DNA of 64,000 nucleotides from Candidatus Multivoradales bacterium (GTDB taxonomy: Bacteria; Acidobacteriota; Thermoanaerobaculia; Multivoradales; JAHEKO01). The stretch spans positions 832,001 to 896,000 of the forward strand of contig CBDCVR010000015.1 in assembly GCA_965223155.1 (NCBI GenBank). The letters run 5' to 3'. Made by a program: the position numbers and the translations under genes. Under the pieces are notes generated by a model, which worked only from the letters and a program-made list of their open reading frames with translations, searched no databases and was not told the origin of the DNA. Shown in pieces: positions 14,227 to 61,032 of this stretch. Position 1 is the stretch's first letter. The number at the start of each line of letters is the position of its first letter.

Positions 14227-16113
14227 TTGACTCCACCCGACGCCAAGAAGAAGGTCACCCTGGCCGCGGTCCGCCGGGAGGCCAAGCGCGTCATCTGGCA
14301 GTTCCGGGGGCGTCTGGCCATCGGTCTGGTGCTGCTCCTCATCGGACGGCTGGCGGGCATGATCCTGCCGGCGTCTTCGAAGTTCCTGATCGATGAGGTG
14401 ATCGGCAAGGGCCGGCACGATCTTCTCGTCTGGATCGCCGTCGCCGCCGGTGCCGGAGCTCTCATCCAGGCGATCTCGTCGTTCTCGCTGGCAGTGCTTC
14501 TGGGCGCCGCGGCCCAGCGCGCCATCAACGGCCTGCGCCTCCGGGTCCAGAGCCATATCGGCCGGCTGCCGATCTCGTTCTTCGAGGAGCACAAGAGCGG
14601 TGAGCTCATCTCGCGCATCATGTCCGACCCAGAGGGCGTCCGGAATCTCGTGGGCACGGGATTCGTGCAGCTGATCGGCGGGGCGCTGTCGGCGACGGTG
14701 GCGTTCTCCGTCCTGCTGTGGCTGAACTGGCGGCTGACGCTCATCACGCTCCTCTTCCTGGCGGTCTTCGGAGTCGTCATGGTCGTGGGTTTCAGCCGCA
14801 TTCGCCCGATTTTCCGGGAACGCGGCAAGCTCAACGCCGAGATCACCGGTCGGCTCGCCGAGTCGCTCAACGGCGCCCGCATCGTCAAGGCCTACACCGC
14901 CGAGGATCGCGAGGACGCGCTCTTTGCCAAAAACACCGAGCGCTTCGTCGATCTGGTGGTCAAGTCAGTGGTCGGTGTTTCGACCGTTTCGACCCTGGGC
15001 ACCTTGATCTTCGGCCTGGTGGCACTCACGGTCGGTCTTCTCGGCACCCGGCAAGTCCTCGCCGGAACCATGTCGGTTGGCGACCTCTTCATGTTCGTCG
15101 TTTTCACCGGTCTGATGGTGACGCCGCTCATCCAGATGAGCGCCATCGGCACGCAACTGACCGAAGCTTTCGCCGGCCTCGACCGCATCTACGAGATCCT
15201 GGAGCGTGAGACCGAGCTCGACGACGACCCCACCCGCCGGGCGCTTGCATCCTTGGATGGGCATGTTCGGTTCCAGAACGTCTGGTTCGAGTACCAGCGA
15301 GACGTCCCGGTCTTGCGCGACGTTTCCTTCGAAGCCCCAGCGGGCACGACGACCGCGATCGTGGGATCGAGCGGCGCCGGCAAGAGCACGCTCATCGGCC
15401 TCATCCTGACCTTCAGAACGCCCACCCAAGGATCCATTCACGTGGACGGGCAGGATCTCGCGACCGTCAAGCTCCGCGACTATCGCCGTCACCTCGCGGT
15501 CGTCCTGCAGGACGATTTCCTATTCGACGGCACCATCGCCGAGAACATCGCCTATAGCCGGCCCGAAGCGAGCCGCGACGAGATCGTCGAGGCCGCGCGC
15601 CTGGCCAACTGCGATCAGTTCGTGCGCGAGTTTCCGGACGGCTACGACACGGTGGTCGGGGAGCGCGGGGTCAAGCTCTCGGGCGGCCAGAAGCAAAGGG
15701 TCTCGATCGCGCGGGCAATGCTCGCGGACCCGCGAATCCTGGTGCTCGATGAAGCCACCTCATCGCTCGACAGCGAGAGCGAGCAGTTGATCCAGGAGGG
15801 TCTCCAGAAGCTGCGCTCGGGGCGAACCACCTTCGTCATCGCGCACAGGCTCTCCACCATTCGGAACGCCGACAACATTCTCGTTCTCGAAGAGGGCAGG
15901 ATCGTCGAAAGCGGCGTCCACGCCGAGTTGCTCGAGCGTGACGGCCGCTATCGCGAGCTCCACGACAAGCAATACCGACTCGAGGCCGACCTCTTCCTGA
16001 ACCCCGGCGAGAGCCCTCGGGACGAAGCCGACGATCGAGAGGACGCCGGCGGCGTCCGGCCCGCCGCCATCGGTCCCCGGATGCCGGGAGGCTTTGGCGG
16101 GCGGGGCGGCTGA
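14227..16113 (+). CDS. ABC exporter, fused TMD-NBD (MsbA-like)
   Basis: 6-TM domain plus GSSGAGKS, LSGGQKQR, DEATSSLD, IAHRLST; TTG start uncertain. Confidence 0.92.
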   Translation: MTPPDAKKKVTLAAVRREAKRVIWQFRGRLAIGLVLLLIGRLAGMILPASSKFLIDEVIGKGRHDLLVWIAVAAGAGALIQAISSFSLAVLLGAAAQRAINGLRLRVQSHIGRLPISFFEEHKSGELISRIMSDPEGVRNLVGTGFVQLIGGALSATVAFSVLLWLNWRLTLITLLFLAVFGVVMVVGFSRIRPIFRERGKLNAEITGRLAESLNGARIVKAYTAEDREDALFAKNTERFVDLVVKSVVGVSTVSTLGTLIFGLVALTVGLLGTRQVLAGTMSVGDLFMFVVFTGLMVTPLIQMSAIGTQLTEAFAGLDRIYEILERETELDDDPTRRALASLDGHVRFQNVWFEYQRDVPVLRDVSFEAPAGTTTAIVGSSGAGKSTLIGLILTFRTPTQGSIHVDGQDLATVKLRDYRRHLAVVLQDDFLFDGTIAENIAYSRPEASRDEIVEAARLANCDQFVREFPDGYDTVVGERGVKLSGGQKQRVSIARAMLADPRILVLDEATSSLDSESEQLIQEGLQKLRSGRTTFVIAHRLSTIRNADNILVLEEGRIVESGVHAELLERDGRYRELHDKQYRLEADLFLNPGESPRDEADDREDAGGVRPAAIGPRMPGGFGGRGG

Positions 16114-50891: not shown

Positions 50892-53800
50892 CTACTCCGG
50901 CTGCCAGGCCGGTATCCGGCCCGGCGTCCAGGGTGCGCCCGCGGCTTCCATCTCGGCCTCGAGCTCGCCGAGATCCTCCTCGACCAATGCCCTGAGCGCG
51001 CCAAGAACCGGCTCGAACGCCTCGGCGGCGATGTCGTAGGCGCGCCGGTGGGTGGCGGTGGGCGCCGAGCTCGACGTCCAGCTGCCGCCCACGGCACGGC
51101 CGATCCGGGCCGAGATCGAAGGCGGCGTGGGCTCGAAGCGGCGGGAGACGGTCCGGTCTCCCTGAAGCGAGACCTTGAGGTCCTCGAGGCGGGTTTCGAG
51201 ATCTTCGAGCCGTGCCACCCAAGCCTCGCTTTCGGTCGGCGTGTCGAGAGCGGCGCGGCGCAGGTGCTGGATCCGGGTTTCGGTCTCTCCGACCACGCGG
51301 TTGGCGCCCTGGACCGCCCGCTGCAAGCGGGCGAGCTTCTTCTGGAAGGCGAGGAGAGCGGCCTTGTCGTCGGCCGGCAACGAGACCGTACCGGTCGGCA
51401 CCGTCTCGAACGTCTCCGGCCCGGCGAGCTCGGTCAGCTCGTTGTTCTCGAACTTGGCGAGACTCACCGAGTAGGTCCCGGGAACCACCATCGGTCCCAT
51501 GGGATCGCTCGAGAAGGCGTTCCGCGCTCGCGGTGTGAGGCGAGCGGGGTCGTGCGGCGGATACCGAAGATCCCAGCTCACCCGATGGAGGCCCTTCTCG
51601 GCCGGACCGGTCAGGCGGCGAACGACGTGTCCGTCGGAGTCCCGCACGGTCAGGACGATCGCTGGATCCTGGGCGCGATCTTCGGCCCGGAGCTCTTCCC
51701 AGCTCGGGTAGCCGACGTCCTCGCCGGCTTCCTTCTCGGCTTCCTCGGACTGGCGCTTCTTCTTCAGGCTCTGGAACCCGTCCTCGAGGTAGTAGGTGAA
51801 GACCGCTCCGTGCGGGGGATTTTCGGCCGTGTAGAACGAGTCCCCCTGGAAGGCGACGTTGTTGTAGCCGAGCTCGAAGCTCTTCATGTACATCCGGGTG
51901 CGCCGCGGAGCGAACAGGATCGCCTCGGCTTCGAGCGCTTCTTCGCTCATCCGCCGGAGCGGCGAGTAGTCGTCGAGGATGAAAAAGCCGCGCCCGAAGG
52001 TGCCGACGACCAAGTCGTTTTCGCGAGCCTGGATCTCGAGGTCGCGCACGTTGATGGTCGGCATGCCGGCGAGCTTCACCCAGCTCGTGCCGCCATTGAC
52101 CGAGACGTAGGCCGCCCACTCGGTGCCGGCAAACAGGAGATCGGCCGTCTCGTGATCCTGGGCGACAGTGTAGACCGTGCCCTTGTCGGGCAGATCGCCG
52201 GCGATCGACGTCCAACTGCGGCCGCGGTCGGTTGACTTCAGAAGGTACGGCTTGAAGTCACCCGACTTGTGGTTGTCGATCGCCGCGAAGACCGTGTCAG
52301 GGTCGTGCTTCGAAGCTTCGAGGTCGCTCACATACGCCATCGCCGGAACACCAGGAAACGAGTCCTCGCGTCTCCAGTTGGCGCCGCCATCTTCCGAGAT
52401 CTGAATCAAGCCGTCATCGGTGCCGACGTAAAGCAGCCCTTCGATCAGTGGTGATTCCGAGACCGACACGATCGTGCCGAAGAACGAGGTCGATCGGTTC
52501 TTCGACACGGTGTCCACACCCCAGACCTTCCCCATGACCTCGAGCCGGTTCCGGTCCAGGTTCCGGGTCAGATCGCCGGAGACCGGCCGCCAGGAGTCAC
52601 CCCGGTCGTCCGAGCGATACAGGCGCTGCGAGGCGAAGTAGAGGCGAGTCGAGGCGTGCGGACTGATCGCGAACGCCGAATCCCAATTCCAACGCGGCGG
52701 ATCCTCTCCGGGCTCGGTCTGGGGCTTGATGTCGGTTCGCTCCCAGCTCTTCTTGTCGAGCCGGACCAGGCCGCCGTACTGCCACTGGGAGTAGACGATG
52801 TCGGGGTTGTCGGGATCGACCCCCGGGTCGAAGCCGTCGCCGCCCACGGTCACGTACCAGTCCCGGTTGGTGATGCCGTGCTCGGAGGTGGTCCGGGAAG
52901 GACCGCCCAAGGTGGAATTGTCTTGGGTGCCGCCATAGACGTTGTAGAAGGGCAGCGCGTTATCGACCGCGATCTTGTAAAACTGCGTGATCGGCAAATT
53001 GGCCTTGAAATCCCAGGTCGCGCCCCGGTCCCAGGTCTCATAGACGCCGCCGTCGCAGCCCGAGATCATGTGCCGGGTGTCGTCCGGATCGATCCAGTGG
53101 GCGTGGCTGTCGACGTGCTTGGCAAACTCCGGGACCTTCTCGAAGCTCTTGCCGCCGTTCTCGGACACATGGAGCCAGGTGTCCATCGAGTAGATCCGGT
53201 CCGGGTTCGTCGGATCGACGAAGATCTCGTTGTAGTACTGGGGCGAGCCCGACACGTAGTCCGAGCGTCTCTCCCAGTTGAGCCCACCGTCGGTCGAGCG
53301 GAAGAAACCACTCTTCTTGCCCAGCGACTCGACGATGGCGTAGACGGTATCCGGTGCCGACGGCGCTACCGCCAGCCCGATCTTGCCCTTGTCCTCCTTC
53401 GGCAGACCGTTTTCGATCTTCGACCAATTGGCACCGCCGTCCGTCGTCTTGTAGACGGTCGATTCCGGACCGCCGTTGATGAGCGTCCAGGTCCGCCGGC
53501 GCCGCTGGTAGGAGGACGCGTACAAGACGTCCGGGGCGCGCGGGTCCATCCAGACTTCGTTGACCCCGGTGTGCTCGCCGATCTCGAGCACTCGCTGCCA
53601 GGTCTCGCCGCCGTCGGTCGTCTTGTAGACGCCGCGCTCACCGCCGGCCCGCCAGAGCGGGCCCTGAGCGGCGACGTAGACCGTCGCCGAATCGCGCGGA
53701 TCCACCACGATCCGCCCGATGTGTTCCGACTCGCCCAGGCCCACGTTCTTCCAGTTCTTGCCGGCGTCCTGGGACTTGTAGACCCCATCGCCGTAGGAGA

Positions 53801-54203
53801 CCGAGCGCTGCGAGTTGTTCTCGCCGGTACCGACCCAGATCACGTCCGGGTTGTTGGGGTCCAGGGTGATGCACCCGATCGAAAACGATCCCTCGCCGTC
53901 GAAGATAGGCGTCCAGGTGGTGCCCGCGTTGATCGTCTTCCACACCCCGCCGGAAGCCGCGGTCACGTACCAGATGCTCGAGTCGTCCGGATGCACGACG
54001 AGATCCGAGATCCGGCCCGAGGCGATCGCGGGACCGATCTCGCGCAGCGGCAACCCGGCCAGGAGCTCGGCCGAGACCCGAAGCTCGGAGCCATCCGGGC
54101 TCGCGGCCGAGGCCTTGGCTTTGCCCCGCTTGGCGGCGGCCGGTTCGGCAGCCCCGGCGAGAACGGTCCAGGTGACAAGAATTCCGACCAAAGTCCGCGT
54201 CAT
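50892..54203 (-). CDS. Exported VPS10/BNR-repeat glycosyl hydrolase-like protein (paralog 1)
   Basis: IGP..SGRI, many S.DGG..W Asp-boxes, GGTQDN, GTFGRG; signal peptide. Confidence 0.88.
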
Positions 54204-54379
54204 CGCTTACCTCTTTCTCCTCAGGAACTTGAAGCCGGGGGACCGTCCGCCGTCGGGAAGACCGGAGCCCGCGCTCCGCTGGTCGAGGAAGGCCGCAAGG
54301 CTATCACCACGCGCTCCGCGCGCCGGCCGCGGATCCGTACCGCTCGCCCGAGGCTTCTTGCCCCTATACTTCGAGCATC

Positions 54380-54658
54380 TTGCGCCCGGCCCGCCCCAAC
54401 CCCGAAGTGCTCTTTCGACACGTGAACGACGAGACCATCCTCGTGCACCTCGACTCGGGAGCAATCTTCTCGCTCAACGAGACCGGATCGCGGTACTGGC
54501 AGCTCCTCGAGTCGGGACTGGCGCCCGAGGCGCTCCTGGACCGAATGGCCGAGGAGTTCGACGTGGCCCGCTCTCAGCTCGCCAGGGAGATCGCCGAGCT
54601 GCAGACAAGCCTCCTGGAGGCCGGGTTGGTCGAAGTCGGCGCTCCTGCGGTTGACTAG
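54380..54658 (+). CRISPR. placeholder
   Basis: not a CRISPR; disregard, see the CDS entry at the same coordinates. Confidence 0.
54380..54658 (+). CDS. PqqD-family RiPP recognition element (lasso B1-like)
   Basis: V.FR.V.DE.ILV.L.SG..FSLNETG...WQLL ... EFDV ... L.EAGLV pattern; 92 aa; TTG start. Confidence 0.85.
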   Translation: MRPARPNPEVLFRHVNDETILVHLDSGAIFSLNETGSRYWQLLESGLAPEALLDRMAEEFDVARSQLAREIAELQTSLLEAGLVEVGAPAVD

Positions 54659-56555
54659 GCCGCCTGAGATCGACATGGCCGCCTGGGCTCTCAGCTGGCT
54701 ACCCGAGATCGAGGCCGAGCCCCGGCTCTACGGCGATCCTCCGGGACCGGACTCCTCCGTCAGCCTTTCTCGCTCGGACGCCGGCGACTTTTCGTTATTC
54801 GACGGCTACCTCCTCGACCCGGGCAAGCTTTCTGCCCGGTCCGACCCAACGGCTTCGAACGCCGAGATCCTCGCCCGCGCCGATGGCGACGGGACGCCCA
54901 GGATCCTCGACCGGCTGCGCGGGAGCTTCGTCTGGATCGTCTGGAACGCCCAGCGCCGTCGGCTGACGGTAGTCCGGGACCTGGCCGGGCTCACCCCCTG
55001 CTTCTTCACTTGGGATGGGAGCGCGCTTCTCGTCGCGCGCCGACCCGACGCGCTCCTGAGGCTCGGCCGTGACCTGGGGCGACTCGACTTTGCCGTCAAC
55101 CGGGAGGCCGTCGCCGAGTACCTGGCGTCGTCCTATTCGGAGGCGCTCGCCGACGAGACCTTCATCAGCAAGGTCAGGCGACTGCGGCCGGCGCACCTGC
55201 TGCGGCTCGACCGGACCGGCCTGGAGATCGATCGCTACTGGGCGCCGCTGCCGGGGGGATTCGCTTGGGCCACGGCGGACGAGGCCGCAACCTTCCCCCA
55301 GGTGCTCGAAGCCGCAGTGGCTCGCTGCCTCGACGCGGGGGCGGACTCGCTGGCCCTGAGCGGCGGCTTCGATTCGGTGAGCCTGGCGGTGCTGGCCGCC
55401 CGGTTGCGCGGTAGCCGGGCGCCACTCGACGCCGTCTCGCTTCACTTCGACGGCGGTGACTGCGACGAGAGCGCCACCCAGACGGCGGTCGCCCGCGCCC
55501 TCGGCATGCCCCAGACCATCCGATCGCTCGCCCAGAGTCTTGGAGACCGCAATCCGGTCGAGGCCGCCCTGGCTCTCTCCGGCGAGAGCCCGGTGCCGGT
55601 GCTGAGCGTATGGCAAGCGTTCTACACCGGTCTCATGGCGAGCATGCGCCCCAGGAAGAGCGGCCTGATGCTGGGAACCGGCGGCGACGAACTCATGGCC
55701 GTCGATGGAAAATATGGCGCGGACTGTGTGCTCGCGGCCTCGCCGCTCCGCCTCTGGCGGTTCTACGACTCCTGGCGGCGGGCTTCTTCGTTCGGACCGC
55801 TATTTGTTGCCCGCGAGATCTTCTGGCGCCACGGCCTGCGGGCAGCGGGACGCGAGATCCTGCTGCGGGCTCTTGACGCGGGGGTCCCGGAGCTCCAAGC
55901 GCGGATCCTCCGCCGGCGCTGGCGCCGGCGAATCGAGGCCAATACCTGGCTCACCCGCGACGCCGGGCTCCTGGACCGGCTCGAACGCCGACGCTCCGGT
56001 GGTACCGACCTCCGCCAAGTCCGGGAGCCAAGCCTGTACATTCGGTACCTGCGCGCCTTGTTTGACTCGCCGGCCCTGATGATGGAGCTCGATCAGGGAG
56101 CTGCCTGGGCCCAGGCCCAGGGTATTGCCACATTCCTGCCATTTTTCGATCGAGACGTCATCGAGCTGAGCCTCCGCCTGACTCCCGAGCAACTCCTGGC
56201 GGGCGGCGAATCCAAAGCACTCTTGCGGAATCTGGTTCGTGGAGGACTCCCCCAGGTCGAGCTCCCTGCCCGCAAAGTCGGCTTCGGTATGATGGTTCAT
56301 GACGTTCTCCGTAAGAGTGGCCGCGAAATCTGGCAGAATTGGCGTTCGACGCTTCGGCTCGGCGAGATTGGCCTGATCCAGCCGGATCGTGGACAGCGAG
56401 CCCTCGATGGCTATTTTGCTCATCGCAACAACGATTGGTTCTTGGCGTGGAAGATTCTGAGCGCGGAAGCCTGGCTGAGGCACCATCGGTCGCGGCCGAC
56501 GAGACCACCCCGGCCTCTCTCCGAAAACCCTGGCGAAAGTCCTGGAGGCCCATGA
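54651..56555 (+). CDS. Asparagine-synthetase-like macrolactam synthetase (lasso cyclase C-like)
   Basis: LSGGFDS ATP-pyrophosphatase loop, GTGGDE, LPFFD, EAWLR; no N-terminal Cys; alternative start ATG 54675. Confidence 0.82.
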   Translation: MTRPPEIDMAAWALSWLPEIEAEPRLYGDPPGPDSSVSLSRSDAGDFSLFDGYLLDPGKLSARSDPTASNAEILARADGDGTPRILDRLRGSFVWIVWNAQRRRLTVVRDLAGLTPCFFTWDGSALLVARRPDALLRLGRDLGRLDFAVNREAVAEYLASSYSEALADETFISKVRRLRPAHLLRLDRTGLEIDRYWAPLPGGFAWATADEAATFPQVLEAAVARCLDAGADSLALSGGFDSVSLAVLAARLRGSRAPLDAVSLHFDGGDCDESATQTAVARALGMPQTIRSLAQSLGDRNPVEAALALSGESPVPVLSVWQAFYTGLMASMRPRKSGLMLGTGGDELMAVDGKYGADCVLAASPLRLWRFYDSWRRASSFGPLFVAREIFWRHGLRAAGREILLRALDAGVPELQARILRRRWRRRIEANTWLTRDAGLLDRLERRRSGGTDLRQVREPSLYIRYLRALFDSPALMMELDQGAAWAQAQGIATFLPFFDRDVIELSLRLTPEQLLAGGESKALLRNLVRGGLPQVELPARKVGFGMMVHDVLRKSGREIWQNWRSTLRLGEIGLIQPDRGQRALDGYFAHRNNDWFLAWKILSAEAWLRHHRSRPTRPPRPLSENPGESPGGP

Positions 56556-56662
56556 AGCTGAGCCACCTGGGCTCGATCGGCGATCTCGTTCAGGGAAGCG
56601 GCAAGACCGGCACGGTTCCCGACGGCGATCCCCAATCTGTTCGCAAGACCGGCGTCGGCTAG
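56552..56662 (+). CDS. Putative RiPP precursor peptide MKLSHLGSIGDLVQGSGKTGTVPDGDPQSVRKTGVG
   Basis: ATGA overlap with the cyclase stop; lasso-leader-like (W.P)xKLxxLGxxxxLVQG; true start may be further upstream in frame. Confidence 0.72.
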   Translation: MKLSHLGSIGDLVQGSGKTGTVPDGDPQSVRKTGVG

Positions 56663-57534
56663 GCCGTTCGGTCGTTCTCGAAAACCGCCCGCAGCCGCCG
56701 CACGGTCCGCCGGAACCGCTCGGGCCCGGACGGATACGCAAGACGCGCGACCTCGACCGAGCCGACCAGGTGTAAGCAGGAGGCAGCCATTCGCCGGGTT
56801 GCCTCACCGTCGGCCGGGTCGAAGCGCCAGCAGTGCTTGAGAAGCTCCGGAAAAGCGATTGGCGCGGGAAGGGGTTCAAGGACGGAACCCTCCAGCTCGG
56901 CTGCGCCGTCTCGACGCTCGAGCAGGACGACGCGCCGGATCGGAAGGAATCGGGGCGGCCGCCGCGCATCCGCCAGCCATTCTGAGGGCGGCTCCGAAAA
57001 CCCCTCCGGATCGAAGCCCAGGAGCTCAAAGGCGTCGGGAAGCAGCCTGAGCCGGAACGGCACGAGCCAACCCCGGCAGGATTCACCGTCCGGCTCGAAG
57101 GGCACGAGGTCGTCCGCGGCCACCTGGGCTCCGGAGAGTCCCAGGGCCGCGGCCAGCGTCGACTTGCCGGTGCCCGAGTCTCCGCAAAGCACCGCTACGC
57201 CGCCGGCCGCGACCACGGCGCTGGCATGGAGCGAGGTCAGCCCGCGAGCCTCGAGGATCAGTGGCAGCACCTGGCGCCGGTACACCTCGGCGATCTCGTC
57301 GCCGGCCGCGTCGCCGGCCACCTCGGCAACCGCTGCGGCCGAGGTCTCGGTCCCGAATCGAAAGAGGCCCACGGCATCGAGGCGCAAGAATCGCTCGGCC
57401 CCCAGAGAGCCGGCGGTACCGATCTGGACGCCCCGCGGATCGCACCAGGGCCAGGAGCGACCCCCGCGCGACGTCCAGTCCGCCCCGGGATCGCCCACCG
57501 TCGCGACCCGCTCGATCTTCAACTCCGGTAGCAT
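56659..57534 (-). CDS. HPr-kinase-like protein (RiPP-associated kinase type)
   Basis: LHASAV, GDSGTGKSTL, ADDL motifs; convergent with the precursor, stops overlapping in CTAG. Confidence 0.8.
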   Translation of the reverse strand: MLPELKIERVATVGDPGADWTSRGGRSWPWCDPRGVQIGTAGSLGAERFLRLDAVGLFRFGTETSAAAVAEVAGDAAGDEIAEVYRRQVLPLILEARGLTSLHASAVVAAGGVAVLCGDSGTGKSTLAAALGLSGAQVAADDLVPFEPDGESCRGWLVPFRLRLLPDAFELLGFDPEGFSEPPSEWLADARRPPRFLPIRRVVLLERRDGAAELEGSVLEPLPAPIAFPELLKHCWRFDPADGEATRRMAASCLHLVGSVEVARLAYPSGPERFRRTVRRLRAVFENDRTA

Positions 57535-57672
57535 GGCGCCTCGACCGAATCTTAGCGGCCGGCACCAAGGCCTGTCCCCGACGCCTCGAGCCGCCCCGGC
57601 GGGCTTGTCCAGCCCGATCGAGACGCCGGCCGGTACCGGAAAAAACTGCTGCCCTCGGAGGACCCTAGAACG

Positions 57673-60600
57673 ATGACCCGACCCCTCGGCACCGCCCGGA
57701 CCAATCGTTGCCCCGTCTTGTCCCGGATCGCTCTTGCCACCGTCGTCTTGACCCTCCTGTCCCTCGTTTTCTCGACACCCGCCGAAGCCCGTAAGGGCAA
57801 GAAGAAGGCGGCCGCCGAGTCCGCTGAGGCCCCCGAGTCCGATACCGCGCTATCGTCGGCGACCTTCTCCGGCCTCGAGTTTCGCTCGATCGGCCCGGCT
57901 CTCATGTCGGGCCGCATCGCCGACATTGCCGTTCATCCCGACGACCAGTCGGTCTGGTACGTGGCGGTGGGGAGCGGCAACTTGTGGAAGACTACGAACG
58001 CTGGCACTACCTGGACGCCCATCTTCGACGACCAGGGCTCGTACTCGATTGGTGACGTGACCCTGGATCCGTCCAACCCCGAGATCGTTTGGGTCGGCAC
58101 CGGCGAGAACGTCGGAGGGCGTCACGTGGGCTACGGTGACGGCGTGTACAAGAGCCTCGATGGGGGCGCAAGCTGGGAAAACGTCGGCCTCGAGAGCTCG
58201 GAACACATCGGCAACATCGTCGTCGATCCGAACGACGGCAATGTCGTCTACGTCGCATCTCAAGGCCCACTGTGGTCTGCCGGAGGCGACCGCGGTCTCT
58301 TCAAGACCACCGACGGCGGCGCGACCTGGGAGAAGATCCTCGGCGGCGGCGAGTACACGGGCGTCAACGAGGTGATGATGGACCCGCGGGACTCGATGGT
58401 TCTCTACGCCTCGACCCATCAGCGCTTTCGGAACGTCGCCGCCCTCCTCAACGGCGGCCCCGAATCGGGACTCCACAAGTCCACCGACGGCGGCACGACT
58501 TGGCGTGAGCTCTCGAACGGCATCCCCGAAGACGACAAAGGCAAGATCGGCATCGCGATCTCGCCCATCAACCCGGACGTTGTCTACGCGACGGTCGAGA
58601 CCCCACAGCGGGAGATCGCCGTCTACCGTTCCGCGAACGCCGGCGCGAGCTGGGAGAAGGGCGCCGATGTCGGCTACTCGGGCACCGGCCCGCACTACTA
58701 CCAGGAGATCTTCGCCAGTCCCCACAAGTTCGACCGCATCTACCACATGAACCCGCGTATCTCGGTCTCGGACGACGGCGGTACGAGCTGGCGGCCGCTG
58801 GGCGAGGAGTACAAGCACGGCGACAGCCATGCGATGGCCTTCGATCCGAACGACCCGGACTACCTTCTAGTCGGAAGCGACGGTGGGCTCTACGAGAGCT
58901 TCGACCAGGCCAAGAGCTGGAAGTTCCTCGCCAACCTGCCGGTGACCCAGTTCTACAAGGTGGCGGTGGACTACGACGAGCCCTTCTACCACGTGGTCGG
59001 CGGCACCCAGGACAACAACACGCAGTACGGGCCTTCGCGCACCGACAACGTGCACGGCATCCGCAACTCCGACTGGGAGATCACGCTTTTCGGCGACGGC
59101 CACCAGCCGGCGATCGACCCCACCGACCCGAACATCGTCTACTCCGAGTGGCAGGAAGGGAACCTGACCCGCTGGGACCGAGCCACCGGCGAGATGATCT
59201 ACATCCAGCCGCAACCCGAAGCCGACGAGGAATGGGACCGCTTCAACTGGGACTCGCCCATTCTGATCAGCGCCCACGACCCGGCCCGCCTCTACTTCGC
59301 GAGCCAGCGAGTCTGGCGCAGCGACAACCGCGGCGATTCTTGGCGGCCGGTTTCCGGAGACCTCTCGAAGGGCGTTGATCGGCTGACCCAGCCGATGATG
59401 GGCAGAGTGTGGCAGTGGGAGTCGAACTGGGACGTCTGGGCGATGTCGAAATACAGCACGATCACGTCTCTAGGGGAATCACCCAAGGACGAGAACATCC
59501 TCTACGCCGGCACCGATGACGGCCTCGTCCAGATCTCCGAGGACGGCGGCCAGACCTGGCGCAAGATCGACTCGCTGCCCGGCGTCCCCGATGGTTTCTT
59601 CGTCAACGACATCAAGGCCGACCTCCACGACGCGGACACCGCCTACGTCGTGGTTGACGACCACAAGTCAGGCGACTTCTCGCCCTACGTCCTGAAATCG
59701 ACCAATCGAGGCCGCTCCTGGACCTCGATCGCGAGCGATCTTCCCGAGCGCCACGTCGTGTGGCGTCTGGTGCAAGATCACGAGAACCCCAATCTCCTCT
59801 TCGTCGGCACCGAATTCGGGGTCTTCTTCACGGTCGACGGCGGCGGCAAGTGGGTCAAGCTTTCGGCCGGGATGCCCAACATCCCGGTGCGGGACCTGGC
59901 CATCCAGAAGCGGGAGAACGACTTGATCGCGGCGACCTTCGGCCGCGGCTTCTACGTCCTCGACGACTACAGCGCTCTGCGCTCGATCTCGGAGGAAATG
60001 CTCGAGTCGTCCGACGTCGAGCTCTTCGAGCCGCGTAAGGCCTGGTGGTACATGGAGCGCCGTGCCCTGGGCGGCTCCAAGAAGGCCAGCCAGGGCGAGG
60101 CCTTCTACGTCGCCGACAACCCGCCTTTCGGCGCCACCTTCACTTACTACCTGAAGGATTCCCTCGAGACCGCCAAGGAGGCGCGCAAGAAGCAAGAGGG
60201 CGAGGTCGCCAAGGAGGGCGGAGACACGCCCTACCCCGGATGGGACGCACTCCGCGAAGAGGATCTCGAGGAGGCTCCTGCGATTCTCCTAACGGTCACC
60301 AACGGAGCCGGCGAGGTGGTTCGCCGCCTGACCGGGCCGGCCAAGGCCGGCGTCCACCGCGTGACCTGGGACCTACGGTATCCGAGTTCGAGCGCCTGGA
60401 GCGAGGACTGGAACGACGAGAACGCAAGCGGTTTCCTGGCCGAGCCCGGAACCTACACAGTTTCGCTGGCCCAGCGCTCGGGGACCGTCGTGACCGATCT
60501 CGACCAGAGCCAGTCCTTCGAGGTCGTACCGCTTCGCGAGCGAGGCCTTCCGGGCGCGAGCCCGGCCGAGGCCGTGGCCTTCCTGCGCGAGCTCGACGCC

Positions 60601-61032
60601 TTCAACCTCCAGGCCGAGGCCGCGAACTCCGCGCTCGCGGAGGCCGAAACGAAGCTCGACGCCATCAGGCAGGCGCTCATGCGGTCGACTCTGGCGCACA
60701 GCCAGCTCGATGACAGCGCCCGCGGTCTGTGGCGGAAGGTCAAGGACCTCCAGCTCTGGCTCGAAGGCAGCGAACGCCGGGACAACATGGGTGATCCGGG
60801 ACCGGTCTCGATCGAGCGCCGGCTCGGCGTCGCCTTCATGGGCAACATGCTGTCGACCTACGGACCGACACCGACTCATACGCGCCAGTTCGAAATCGCC
60901 AAGGAGGAGTTCGCCCGACTCTCTTCGGAGCTCAACCAACTTCTCGAAACCGACCTACCCGCTCTCGAGACTCAGCTCGACGCGGCGGGCGTTCCGTGGA
61001 CTCCGGGCCGCGGCATTGGCGGAGGATCCTGA
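57673..61032 (+). CDS. Exported VPS10/BNR-repeat glycosyl hydrolase-like protein (paralog 2)
   Basis: Same architecture as 50892..54203, with shared blocks [27 protein letters not shown]. Confidence 0.88.
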   Translation: MTRPLGTARTNRCPVLSRIALATVVLTLLSLVFSTPAEARKGKKKAAAESAEAPESDTALSSATFSGLEFRSIGPALMSGRIADIAVHPDDQSVWYVAVGSGNLWKTTNAGTTWTPIFDDQGSYSIGDVTLDPSNPEIVWVGTGENVGGRHVGYGDGVYKSLDGGASWENVGLESSEHIGNIVVDPNDGNVVYVASQGPLWSAGGDRGLFKTTDGGATWEKILGGGEYTGVNEVMMDPRDSMVLYASTHQRFRNVAALLNGGPESGLHKSTDGGTTWRELSNGIPEDDKGKIGIAISPINPDVVYATVETPQREIAVYRSANAGASWEKGADVGYSGTGPHYYQEIFASPHKFDRIYHMNPRISVSDDGGTSWRPLGEEYKHGDSHAMAFDPNDPDYLLVGSDGGLYESFDQAKSWKFLANLPVTQFYKVAVDYDEPFYHVVGGTQDNNTQYGPSRTDNVHGIRNSDWEITLFGDGHQPAIDPTDPNIVYSEWQEGNLTRWDRATGEMIYIQPQPEADEEWDRFNWDSPILISAHDPARLYFASQRVWRSDNRGDSWRPVSGDLSKGVDRLTQPMMGRVWQWESNWDVWAMSKYSTITSLGESPKDENILYAGTDDGLVQISEDGGQTWRKIDSLPGVPDGFFVNDIKADLHDADTAYVVVDDHKSGDFSPYVLKSTNRGRSWTSIASDLPERHVVWRLVQDHENPNLLFVGTEFGVFFTVDGGGKWVKLSAGMPNIPVRDLAIQKRENDLIAATFGRGFYVLDDYSALRSISEEMLESSDVELFEPRKAWWYMERRALGGSKKASQGEAFYVADNPPFGATFTYYLKDSLETAKEARKKQEGEVAKEGGDTPYPGWDALREEDLEEAPAILLTVTNGAGEVVRRLTGPAKAGVHRVTWDLRYPSSSAWSEDWNDENASGFLAEPGTYTVSLAQRSGTVVTDLDQSQSFEVVPLRERGLPGASPAEAVAFLRELDAFNLQAEAANSALAEAETKLDAIRQALMRSTLAHSQLDDSARGLWRKVKDLQLWLEGSERRDNMGDPGPVSIERRLGVAFMGNMLSTYGPTPTHTRQFEIAKEEFARLSSELNQLLETDLPALETQLDAAGVPWTPGRGIGGGS

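Follow-up and report, generated by a model that had tools for sequence, protein, structure and literature searches.

A Lasso-Type Peptide Locus in an Acidobacteriota Genome and the Unlinked B2 Peptidase That May Serve It

Introduction

Lasso genome-mining rules expect the leader peptidase B2 to be encoded beside the cyclase. How, then, would a locus mature its peptide if it encodes a recognition element, a lasso-type cyclase, a precursor and a kinase, and no B2? The question is raised by positions 54380-57534 of a 64,000-nucleotide stretch of DNA (hereafter the window; contig CBDCVR010000015.1 of assembly GCA_965223155.1, positions 832,001 to 896,000) from Candidatus Multivoradales bacterium, a member of the Acidobacteriota. 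The first-pass annotation of the window, made from the sequence alone, offered two answers: either a B2 acts in trans, or the locus represents a distinct family of RiPPs (peptides that are synthesized ribosomally and modified after translation) in which isopeptide bonds form without classical leader removal.

The reading we favor, at slightly better than even confidence, is a reduced lasso pathway of the paeninodin-like kind, in which the lone B2 of the genome removes the leader in trans; we regard the locus as a known system that has been split rather than as new chemistry. In the proposed scheme, the order of whose four steps is taken from homology with paeninodin-type systems, the RiPP recognition element (RRE) would bind the Trp-containing leader of a precursor of ~70 residues; the single B2, which probably serves a second B2-less locus as well, would cut the leader; the AsnB-like cyclase would adenylate an Asp side chain and close it onto the new N-terminus; and the kinase would phosphorylate a Ser or Thr that is probably not C-terminal. 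The ring would most likely join Gly1 to Asp8 of a core beginning G-K-T-G or, alternatively, Lys1 to the invariant Asp of a D-P motif, and the product would presumably be threaded.

Throughout the text we refer to the gene products as A (precursor), B1 (RRE), B2 (leader peptidase), C (cyclase) and K (kinase), to genomes by G numbers (G000 being the genome of the window) and to their contigs by C numbers. Coordinates without a genome are those of the window.

A Compact Locus Without B2

Two divergently oriented VPS10/sortilin-BNR genes, paralogues that are 51% identical to each other, enclose the locus, a dense block of four genes (Table 1). The gaps between the four-gene block and these flanks measure 176 and 138 bp and hence leave no room for B2 or an exporter; neither the open reading frame (ORF) list nor a domain search revealed a B2, an exporter, an NTP transferase or any other gene between the VPS10 genes. 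The first-pass annotation, which had described VPS10 genes on both sides and no B2 or adjacent exporter, was accurate in these respects, as it was in identifying a stand-alone PqqD/RRE gene, an AsnB-like enzyme with SGGFDS and GGDE motifs and without an N-terminal Cys, and an HPr-kinase-like gene.

The RRE matches PF05402 with 55.8 bits (6e-15; cut-off 23.4) and is 33-43% identical to the RREs of eight related loci, while falling below the cut-offs of the lasso PqqD chaperone models NF033530 (39.5 bits) and NF033536 (36 bits). The cyclase, for which ATG 54675 is an alternative start, matches Asn_synthase (PF00733; 100.4 bits, 2.2e-28) and GATase_7 (37.2 bits, 3.4e-9). Its SGGFDS and GGDE motifs are at residues 237 and 344, respectively, and no Cys follows the start (position 2). 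The enzyme scores 87-93 bits on the NCBIfam lasso cyclase models, short of their cut-offs of 300-525; the NCBIfam lasso models for cyclase and RRE are narrow and clade-specific. A B2 hidden as a fusion within the cyclase was considered and rejected, its length and domain layout being the same as in homologues.

The kinase carries a P-loop (GDSGTGKST) at residue 118 and remains below the family cut-offs of Hpr_kinase_C (17.2 bits; cut-off 33.3) and HprK_rel_A (25.2 bits; cut-off 200). Its identification as a lasso-type HprK-like kinase is made mainly because its homologues adjoin a cyclase homologue in related loci, first in all five loci examined and then in all 11; the window kinase is 30-40% identical to these cyclase-adjacent kinases.

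The compact layout is not an obvious misassembly, because independent public-run contigs span the locus: a 4769-base contig in run X1 covers 53600-58368 with zero differences from the window, and contigs from runs X2 and X3 bridge the precursor/kinase junction. The contigs covering the locus come from four public runs on two samples of one study, which possibly include the source sample of the assembly. A joint 53688>57295 in runs X2 and X4 was disregarded, its short side measuring just 21 letters. Four single-base variants within the kinase gene (57256-57284), seen in one short contig each in X2 and X4, are probably strain variation.

One Unlinked B2 and a Second B2-Less Locus

The first-pass annotation had proposed a genome search for Transglut_core3 (PF13471), and this was carried out throughout G000 (4.0 Mb, 98.7% complete) at E<=1. 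It returned four matches, just one of which exceeds the 26-bit cut-off (80.2 bits, G000:C15:1163494-1163859), the other three scoring 11-16 bits. The gene containing this match lies on the same contig as the window locus, ~277 kb away, adjoins no cyclase and is intact, with Cys106 and His141 (H-A-W) invariant in all eight aligned B2s. Its neighbors (CoxG, XdhC, a MobA-like transferase and Exo_endo_phos) include no RiPP gene, and nothing convincing in the way of a [YW]xxP leader motif was found near it. CoxG/XdhC and Exo_endo_phos do not recur beside B2 in the ~1.5-kb flanks of the other B2 loci searched; the genomic position of the unlinked B2 is not conserved.

The strongest argument for a B2 acting in trans is provided by a second lasso-type locus of the same genome, on C13, which combines a textbook precursor with the lack of a nearby peptidase in a genome that has one stray B2. 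This locus encodes a PqqD (66.9 bits), a 55-residue precursor, a 583-residue cyclase and a 347-residue HprK-like kinase, and a search with the B2 profile found no B2 within 19 kb around it. In this precursor a G-G-G-G-L-P-S-D core, with Thr at -2 and Gly1-Asp8, comes after a canonical Y-x-x-P-x-L...G...T-L leader, and by analogy it is one that needs a leader peptidase. Within the family its cyclase finds best identities of 31-33% and matches at E<=1e-30 in two of 44 genomes. A Crp-family regulator gene follows the C13 locus.

In total G000 carries six PqqD, eight HprK-like and six NTP_transf_5 genes and one B2. Besides the two lasso loci there are four PqqD-HprK-NTP_transf_5 modules with neither cyclase nor B2; these modules resemble LPP or HprK-related systems.

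Among the 45 genomes of the family, PF13471 exceeds the cut-off in 25 (a tally that includes G005), and several of these genes adjoin AsnB-like genes. A tree was built from 27 B2 domains, after removal of two duplicates, of the row for G005 and of three rows that were short or weak. It groups the G000 B2 with those of G001, G010, G025, G033, G009, G032 and G015 (support 91/80), a clade that spans six genera and consists of intact ORFs throughout; the tree leaves the relation of the G000 B2 to the in-cluster B2s of Rokubacteria open. The members from G001, G010, G025 and G033 are stand-alone genes. That of G015 stands in a row of HprK-like gene, B2 and PqqD on one strand (L087 10091-11746; G015:C1 ~3.894 Mb), a module without a cyclase and 560 kb from the cyclases of that genome, and that of G009 has NTP_transf_5 on one side and a divergent HprK-like kinase with a sulfotransferase on the other. 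The small frames near the G015 and G009 modules were read and offered nothing convincing. The G009 module is directly upstream of a 73%-identity orthologue of the window's right-hand VPS10 gene, which implies that the same chromosomal site hosts related RiPP-type genes in another genus. On G009:C111 (L088) the orthologue of the right-hand VPS10 gene is preceded by TMEM175, NTP_transf_5 and B2.

The clade thus goes with the kinase and RRE machinery of this pathway type and not specifically with the cyclase, and the unlinked B2, which has stayed intact in six genera, is, judging from sequence, a plausible leader peptidase guided by an RRE. The suggestion of a B2 in trans has accordingly gained a single intact candidate and a second locus in want of one, while its action on the window precursor is something we infer.

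B2 in Related Loci

Precursors of the window type were sought with a precursor profile in 45 genomes of the window's family (eight matches at E<=0.01, six of them strong), in 300 genomes of the order (seven at E<=0.001), in 401 genomes sampled from the class (12 at E<=0.01, strong in five genomes) and in 124 genomes of the family of G323 (one match). Scanning a three-row cyclase alignment against named genome records yielded six loci; the single window cyclase, used as a query against genome and metagenome contigs, gave pattern matches, none of which was confirmed.

In all, the precursor type occurs at 11 loci from Acidobacteriota, Myxococcota and Rokubacteria. B2 is in the cluster at five of these and absent from five, all in the window's family, while one locus is cut off by the end of its contig. 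It is a partner in all five complete homologous clusters found, and B2 therefore belongs to the pathway. The first-pass annotation had reasoned that close homologous loci all carrying B2 would mark this one as decayed or split; B2 is in the cluster at about half of them, and the window locus is best seen as a split cluster. Its alternative proposal, a distinct RiPP family that dispenses with classical leader removal, is disfavored by the five loci where the same precursor type is accompanied by a B2. At these loci the cyclases are 28-43% identical to that of the window and the precursors share the W, G-K, D-P and R-K elements. Relative to the window, the cyclases of G015, Rokubacteria and the Polyangia contig are 40-43% identical and the others ~28-31%, a spread showing that B2-linked and B2-unlinked relatives are equally close to the window.

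The B2-less state extends over five loci in three genera. In G001, G002 and G015 a B2 is found elsewhere in the genome, and in G001-G003 PqqD, too, is missing from the locus, the nearest one lying elsewhere in the genome. The presence of B2 in five homologous clusters and its absence from the five of this family indicate that the lineage has scattered its pathway genes; the scattering is a lineage trait, not a peculiarity of one assembly. In G015, the closest relative, one operon contains two cyclases, 42% and 38% identical to that of the window, with two different precursors and a single kinase and RRE. The cyclase match of one Rokubacteria metagenome-assembled genome (MAG) is broken into three pieces that lie in different frames (L110 10001-11784), a sign that this record may contain frameshifts or assembly errors.

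Table 1. Features of the window locus, of the window genome and of related loci.
Feature	Position	Strand	Basis or gene order
B1, stand-alone PqqD-type RRE, 92 aa	54380-54658	+	Pfam PF05402
C, AsnB-like lasso-type macrolactam cyclase, 634 aa	54651-56555	+	Asn_synthase, GATase_7
A, precursor, long form	56447-56662	+	in-frame Trp leader and profile match; predicted core from Gly of G-K
K, HprK-like P-loop kinase, 291 aa, convergent	56659-57534	-	P-loop and homologue context
Sigma-70-like promoter match (TGGACA, 16 nt, TATTTT), weak	56390-56417	+	consensus match only
12-nt tandem duplication in leader (RKPW/RKSW)	56522-56545	+	copies identical at 10/12 bases
VPS10/sortilin-BNR flank	50892-54203	-	domain match
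VPS10/sortilin-BNR flank	57673-61032	+	domain match
Unlinked B2, 186 aa	G000:C15:1163371-1163931		NF033537 lasso_biosyn_B2, 87.6 bits, cut-off 33
Second lasso-type locus	G000:C13:850438-853881 (L055 7438-10881)	one strand	PqqD, precursor, cyclase, HprK-like kinase
PqqD-HprK-NTP_transf_5 module	G000:C13:966900-969218
PqqD-HprK-NTP_transf_5 module	G000:C14:350715-356535
PqqD-HprK-NTP_transf_5 module	G000:C14:430464-436583
PqqD-HprK-NTP_transf_5 module	G000:C14:968127-970784
G014, B2 in cluster			PqqD, K, A, C, NTP_transf_5, unknown, ABC, B2
G323, B2 in cluster			PqqD, C, A, then convergent K, B2, NTP_transf_5
Polyangiaceae MAG, B2 in cluster			PqqD, C, A, K, B2, PqqD
Two Rokubacteria MAGs, B2 in cluster			B2, PqqD, C, A, K, N
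G015, no B2 in cluster	L027 6711-11956		two cyclases, two precursors, K, PqqD
G001, G002, G003, no B2 in cluster			K, C, A only
Polyangia contig, locus cut by contig end			contig begins inside cyclase

The Precursor, the Ring and the Kinase Target

The first-pass annotation had taken the precursor to be a 36-residue ORF that starts at ATG 56552 and ends in TGVG. The ending is correct, and the stop codon overlaps that of the kinase (CTAG). The length is probably not: the 36-residue ORF appears to be a truncated call of a longer precursor, because the in-frame sequence upstream carries a Trp that is invariant among relatives (8/8 aligned). ATG 56552 overlaps the cyclase stop, the same frame is open upstream and reads ...RKPWRKSWRP ahead of the Met, and the precursor-family profile matches 56528-56659 (74.2 bits), beginning 24 nt before the ATG. 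As the Trp leader motif is what the RRE binds in paeninodin-type systems, a precursor without the Trp would make the RRE pointless.

Besides ATG 56552, the candidate starts are GTG 56447, TTG 56435 and CTG 56471; between GTG 56447 and ATG 56552 there is no ATG, GTG or TTG, and CTG 56471 is the sole near-cognate codon. Starts at GTG 56447 or TTG 56435 would overlap the final ~36 codons of the cyclase ORF. Cyclase homologues align only up to about residue 610-621, and the last ~15-20 residues form a tail that is unconserved among them; by a hand count, the frame indicated by third-position GC changes at ~56500 from that of the cyclase to that of the precursor. The promoter-like match, inside the 3' end of the cyclase gene and just upstream of the long-form start, is the sole one within 54000-57900, where shuffles lead one to expect 0.2.

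The leader motif of the window is W-R-P-M-K-L (W-x-P-M-x-L), with the Pro one place early relative to the [Y/W]xxPx[L/V/I/F/A] leader expected of lasso precursors, in which core residue 1 can be joined to an Asp or Glu at position 7-9. The leaders of G014 and G323 share this W-x-P-M-x-[LV] variant, so that the in-frame Met may be a conserved leader residue and is not necessarily the start. At the place of the duplication in the window leader, precursor 1 of G015 has a single RKPW.

The precursors beside homologous cyclases follow the pattern W..P...G...GK.....D.DP...RK, with Trp followed by Pro plus a hydrophobic residue and a Gly nine residues after the Trp. The seven- and eight-row alignments show no variation at Trp, at this Gly, at one Asp or at one Arg. 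A Lys is likewise constant in the seven-row alignment and, on inspection by eye, throughout the 12 precursors; the Gly of G-K is present in 11 of the 12 (precursor 2 of G015 lacks it). An acidic residue lies six places after the invariant Lys in 10/12, and D-P, or D alone, lies 7-8 places after it in every one.

Where would the leader be cut? At the spacing from Trp of known leaders (-15 to -17), the first acidic residue would fall 10-12 residues into the core; a ring of 10-12 residues exceeds known ring sizes. A cut just before G-K, which we favor, would give Gly1-Asp8 in the window and Gly1-Asp9 in G014 and G323, while a cut before the Lys would give Lys1 joined to the invariant Asp in rings of 8-9.

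The contrast that the first-pass annotation drew with the C-terminal Ser of paeninodin proved apt. The C-terminal residues of the 12 precursors are Gly in nine and Asp, Gln and Pro in one each, never Ser, and the kinase target must therefore differ from that of paeninodin. Each precursor has at least one Ser or Thr within the three residues after the invariant Lys, and from sequence this Ser/Thr is probably the acceptor.

Weighing the Explanations

Several observations count against removal of the leader by the unlinked B2. Its activity on the window precursor is inferred from sequence, and its clade may natively serve another RRE-dependent pathway: the members from G015 and G009 sit in the kinase, PqqD and NTP transferase modules without a cyclase, and G010, G025 and G033 have a B2 of the clade and no precursor of this type. 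G003 presents the reverse case, as the locus is present and no PF13471 match was found in the genome, which is 91% complete. With the in-cluster B2s of G323, G038 and G014 the orphan B2 shares only 17-23% identity, and with those of Rokubacteria ~30-32%; it is no recent copy of a cluster B2. In-cluster B2s have an acidic residue (E, E, D) 12-13 positions after the catalytic His, which by comparison with McjB may be the third residue of the triad; the B2s of G000, G009, G033 and G015 have Gly or Gln there. McjB-like proteins are described as having a Cys-His-Asp triad (PMC7533575). A search of PDB sequences with the B2 profile (E<=0.01 and E<=10) produced no match, and a predicted complex of RRE, precursor and unlinked B2 is not used as evidence, one control having outscored it. 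On the precursor side, the start codon may be that of the long or of the short form: GGAGG, 3 nt ahead of ATG 56552, would suit the short form, whose leader would have no Trp and might not be bound by the RRE. Under the G-K cleavage model the -2 residue is Gly or Ser, not the usual Thr. As for export, the window has no ABC exporter nearer than ~40 kb. An MsbA-like ABC exporter (ABC_membrane plus ABC_tran; 14227-16113, plus strand) lies at that distance and has no evident link to the cluster.

It is on the whole unlikely that the locus is a decaying or silent remnant, from which B2, NTP transferase and exporter have been deleted, which yields no mature product, and whose genome devotes the unlinked B2 to a different pathway. 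The idea takes its appeal from G323, which has the same PqqD-C-A order and convergent kinase but carries B2 and NTP_transf_5 between kinase and precursor; the window resembles this layout minus ~1.5 kb. The comparison is not a close one, however, as the window cyclase is just 30% identical to that of G323. The distant exporter and a leader with a 12-nt duplication and no clear start codon would also suit a remnant, as would the patchiness of the precursor type (strong in 6/45 genomes of the family, found in 1/124 of that of G323), which fits gain and loss of islands. Against decay, none of the four ORFs is shortened in comparison with its homologues, and third-position GC is high (0.79-0.85). 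SGGFDS, GGDE and the P-loop are intact, as are the invariant precursor residues W, G, K, D and R; moreover, the B2-less state is retained at five loci in three genera.

Less probable again is an active pathway in which some other protease, a housekeeping or signal-peptidase-like enzyme, removes or trims the leader and the unlinked B2 is uninvolved. There are precedents: RRE-dependent LPP clusters use an SpI-like leader peptidase instead of B2 (PMC13381572), and pseudomycoidin is reported to be cyclizable without leader or peptidase (PMC6993621). Modules that combine PqqD, HprK and NTP_transf_5 without B2 occur four more times in G000, making RRE pathways without a linked B2 common there, and G003 carries the locus with no B2 detected. 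Yet that genome is incomplete, no candidate protease is linked to the locus, and B2 accompanies every complete homologous cluster.

That the cyclase instead joins the invariant Lys to the D-P Asp by a side-chain isopeptide bond on an uncleaved, RRE-bound precursor, the kinase then marking the neighboring Ser/Thr and the unlinked B2 serving other RRE modules, seems to us highly improbable: it would account for the invariance of Lys and D-P Asp in 12/12 precursors at a fixed spacing of 7-8 residues, for the one precursor without a Gly before the Lys and for the ring of 10-11 residues that a cut at the usual distance from Trp would give, but the same Lys and Asp are present in five B2-carrying clusters and so do not single out a mechanism without B2, cleavage directly ahead of G-K yields rings of the ordinary size of 8-9, and our literature search found no lasso-type cyclase described as making such a bond.

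Leader removal in trans by the lone B2, then, remains the explanation we prefer, and it has consequences for genome mining. A lineage in which cyclase, precursor and kinase stay together while B2, and in sister species also B1, is scattered would be rated incomplete under such rules and missed. Should a single unlinked B2 indeed act for both lasso loci, this class of RiPP would have a leader peptidase used in common; other RiPP classes offer familiar cases of shared proteases that are not linked to the cluster. The precursor family, moreover, occurs in three phyla, always with an HprK-like kinase and never with a C-terminal Ser, which points to an undescribed phosphorylation site or role.

Comparison With Known Systems

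Our literature search found no lasso cluster with an unlinked B2, though the supplements of mining papers (LPP, Kretsch et al.) may list such clusters; nor did it find this precursor family described in Acidobacteriota, mining-paper supplements lying outside its coverage.

Triculamin-type clusters (A, C, D, T) are like the window locus in having a lasso-type cyclase without B2 in the cluster (PMC12070363). According to the same source, they have no RRE, a follower rather than a leader and an N-terminally truncated cyclase, whereas the window has an RRE, a leader and a full-length 634-residue cyclase with a GATase-like domain. The LPP clusters (PMC13381572) combine an RRE and an HprK-like kinase with a [Y/W]xxP leader, an NTP transferase, an SpI-like peptidase and an exporter; in contrast to these clusters, which have no cyclase, the window has a cyclase and a lasso-like core and has no peptidase at the locus.

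The closest comparison is with paeninodin and pseudomycoidin of Bacillota. Paeninodin-type clusters are composed of C, A, HprK, B1, B2, (N) and D (PMC6993621), their leaders have a W-x-x-P motif that is bound by the RRE (PMC13381572), and the characterized kinases of the PadeK/PsmK type phosphorylate a C-terminal Ser (PMC6993621; PMC7533575). Set against this description, the window locus differs in lacking B2, NTP transferase and exporter, with its B2 unlinked; in the W-x-P-M-x-L leader, the -2 residue other than Thr and the want of a C-terminal Ser in any of the 12 precursors; and in its acidobacterial host, with a cyclase and an RRE that miss all NCBIfam lasso cut-offs. What it has in common with these systems is the discrete PqqD RRE, the AsnB-like cyclase, the HprK-like kinase and the Trp-type leader. 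The likeness extends further in its relatives, which also have NTP_transf_5, an ABC exporter and B2: an NTP transferase occurs in G014, in G323 and in the Rokubacteria, in G014 together with an ABC exporter.

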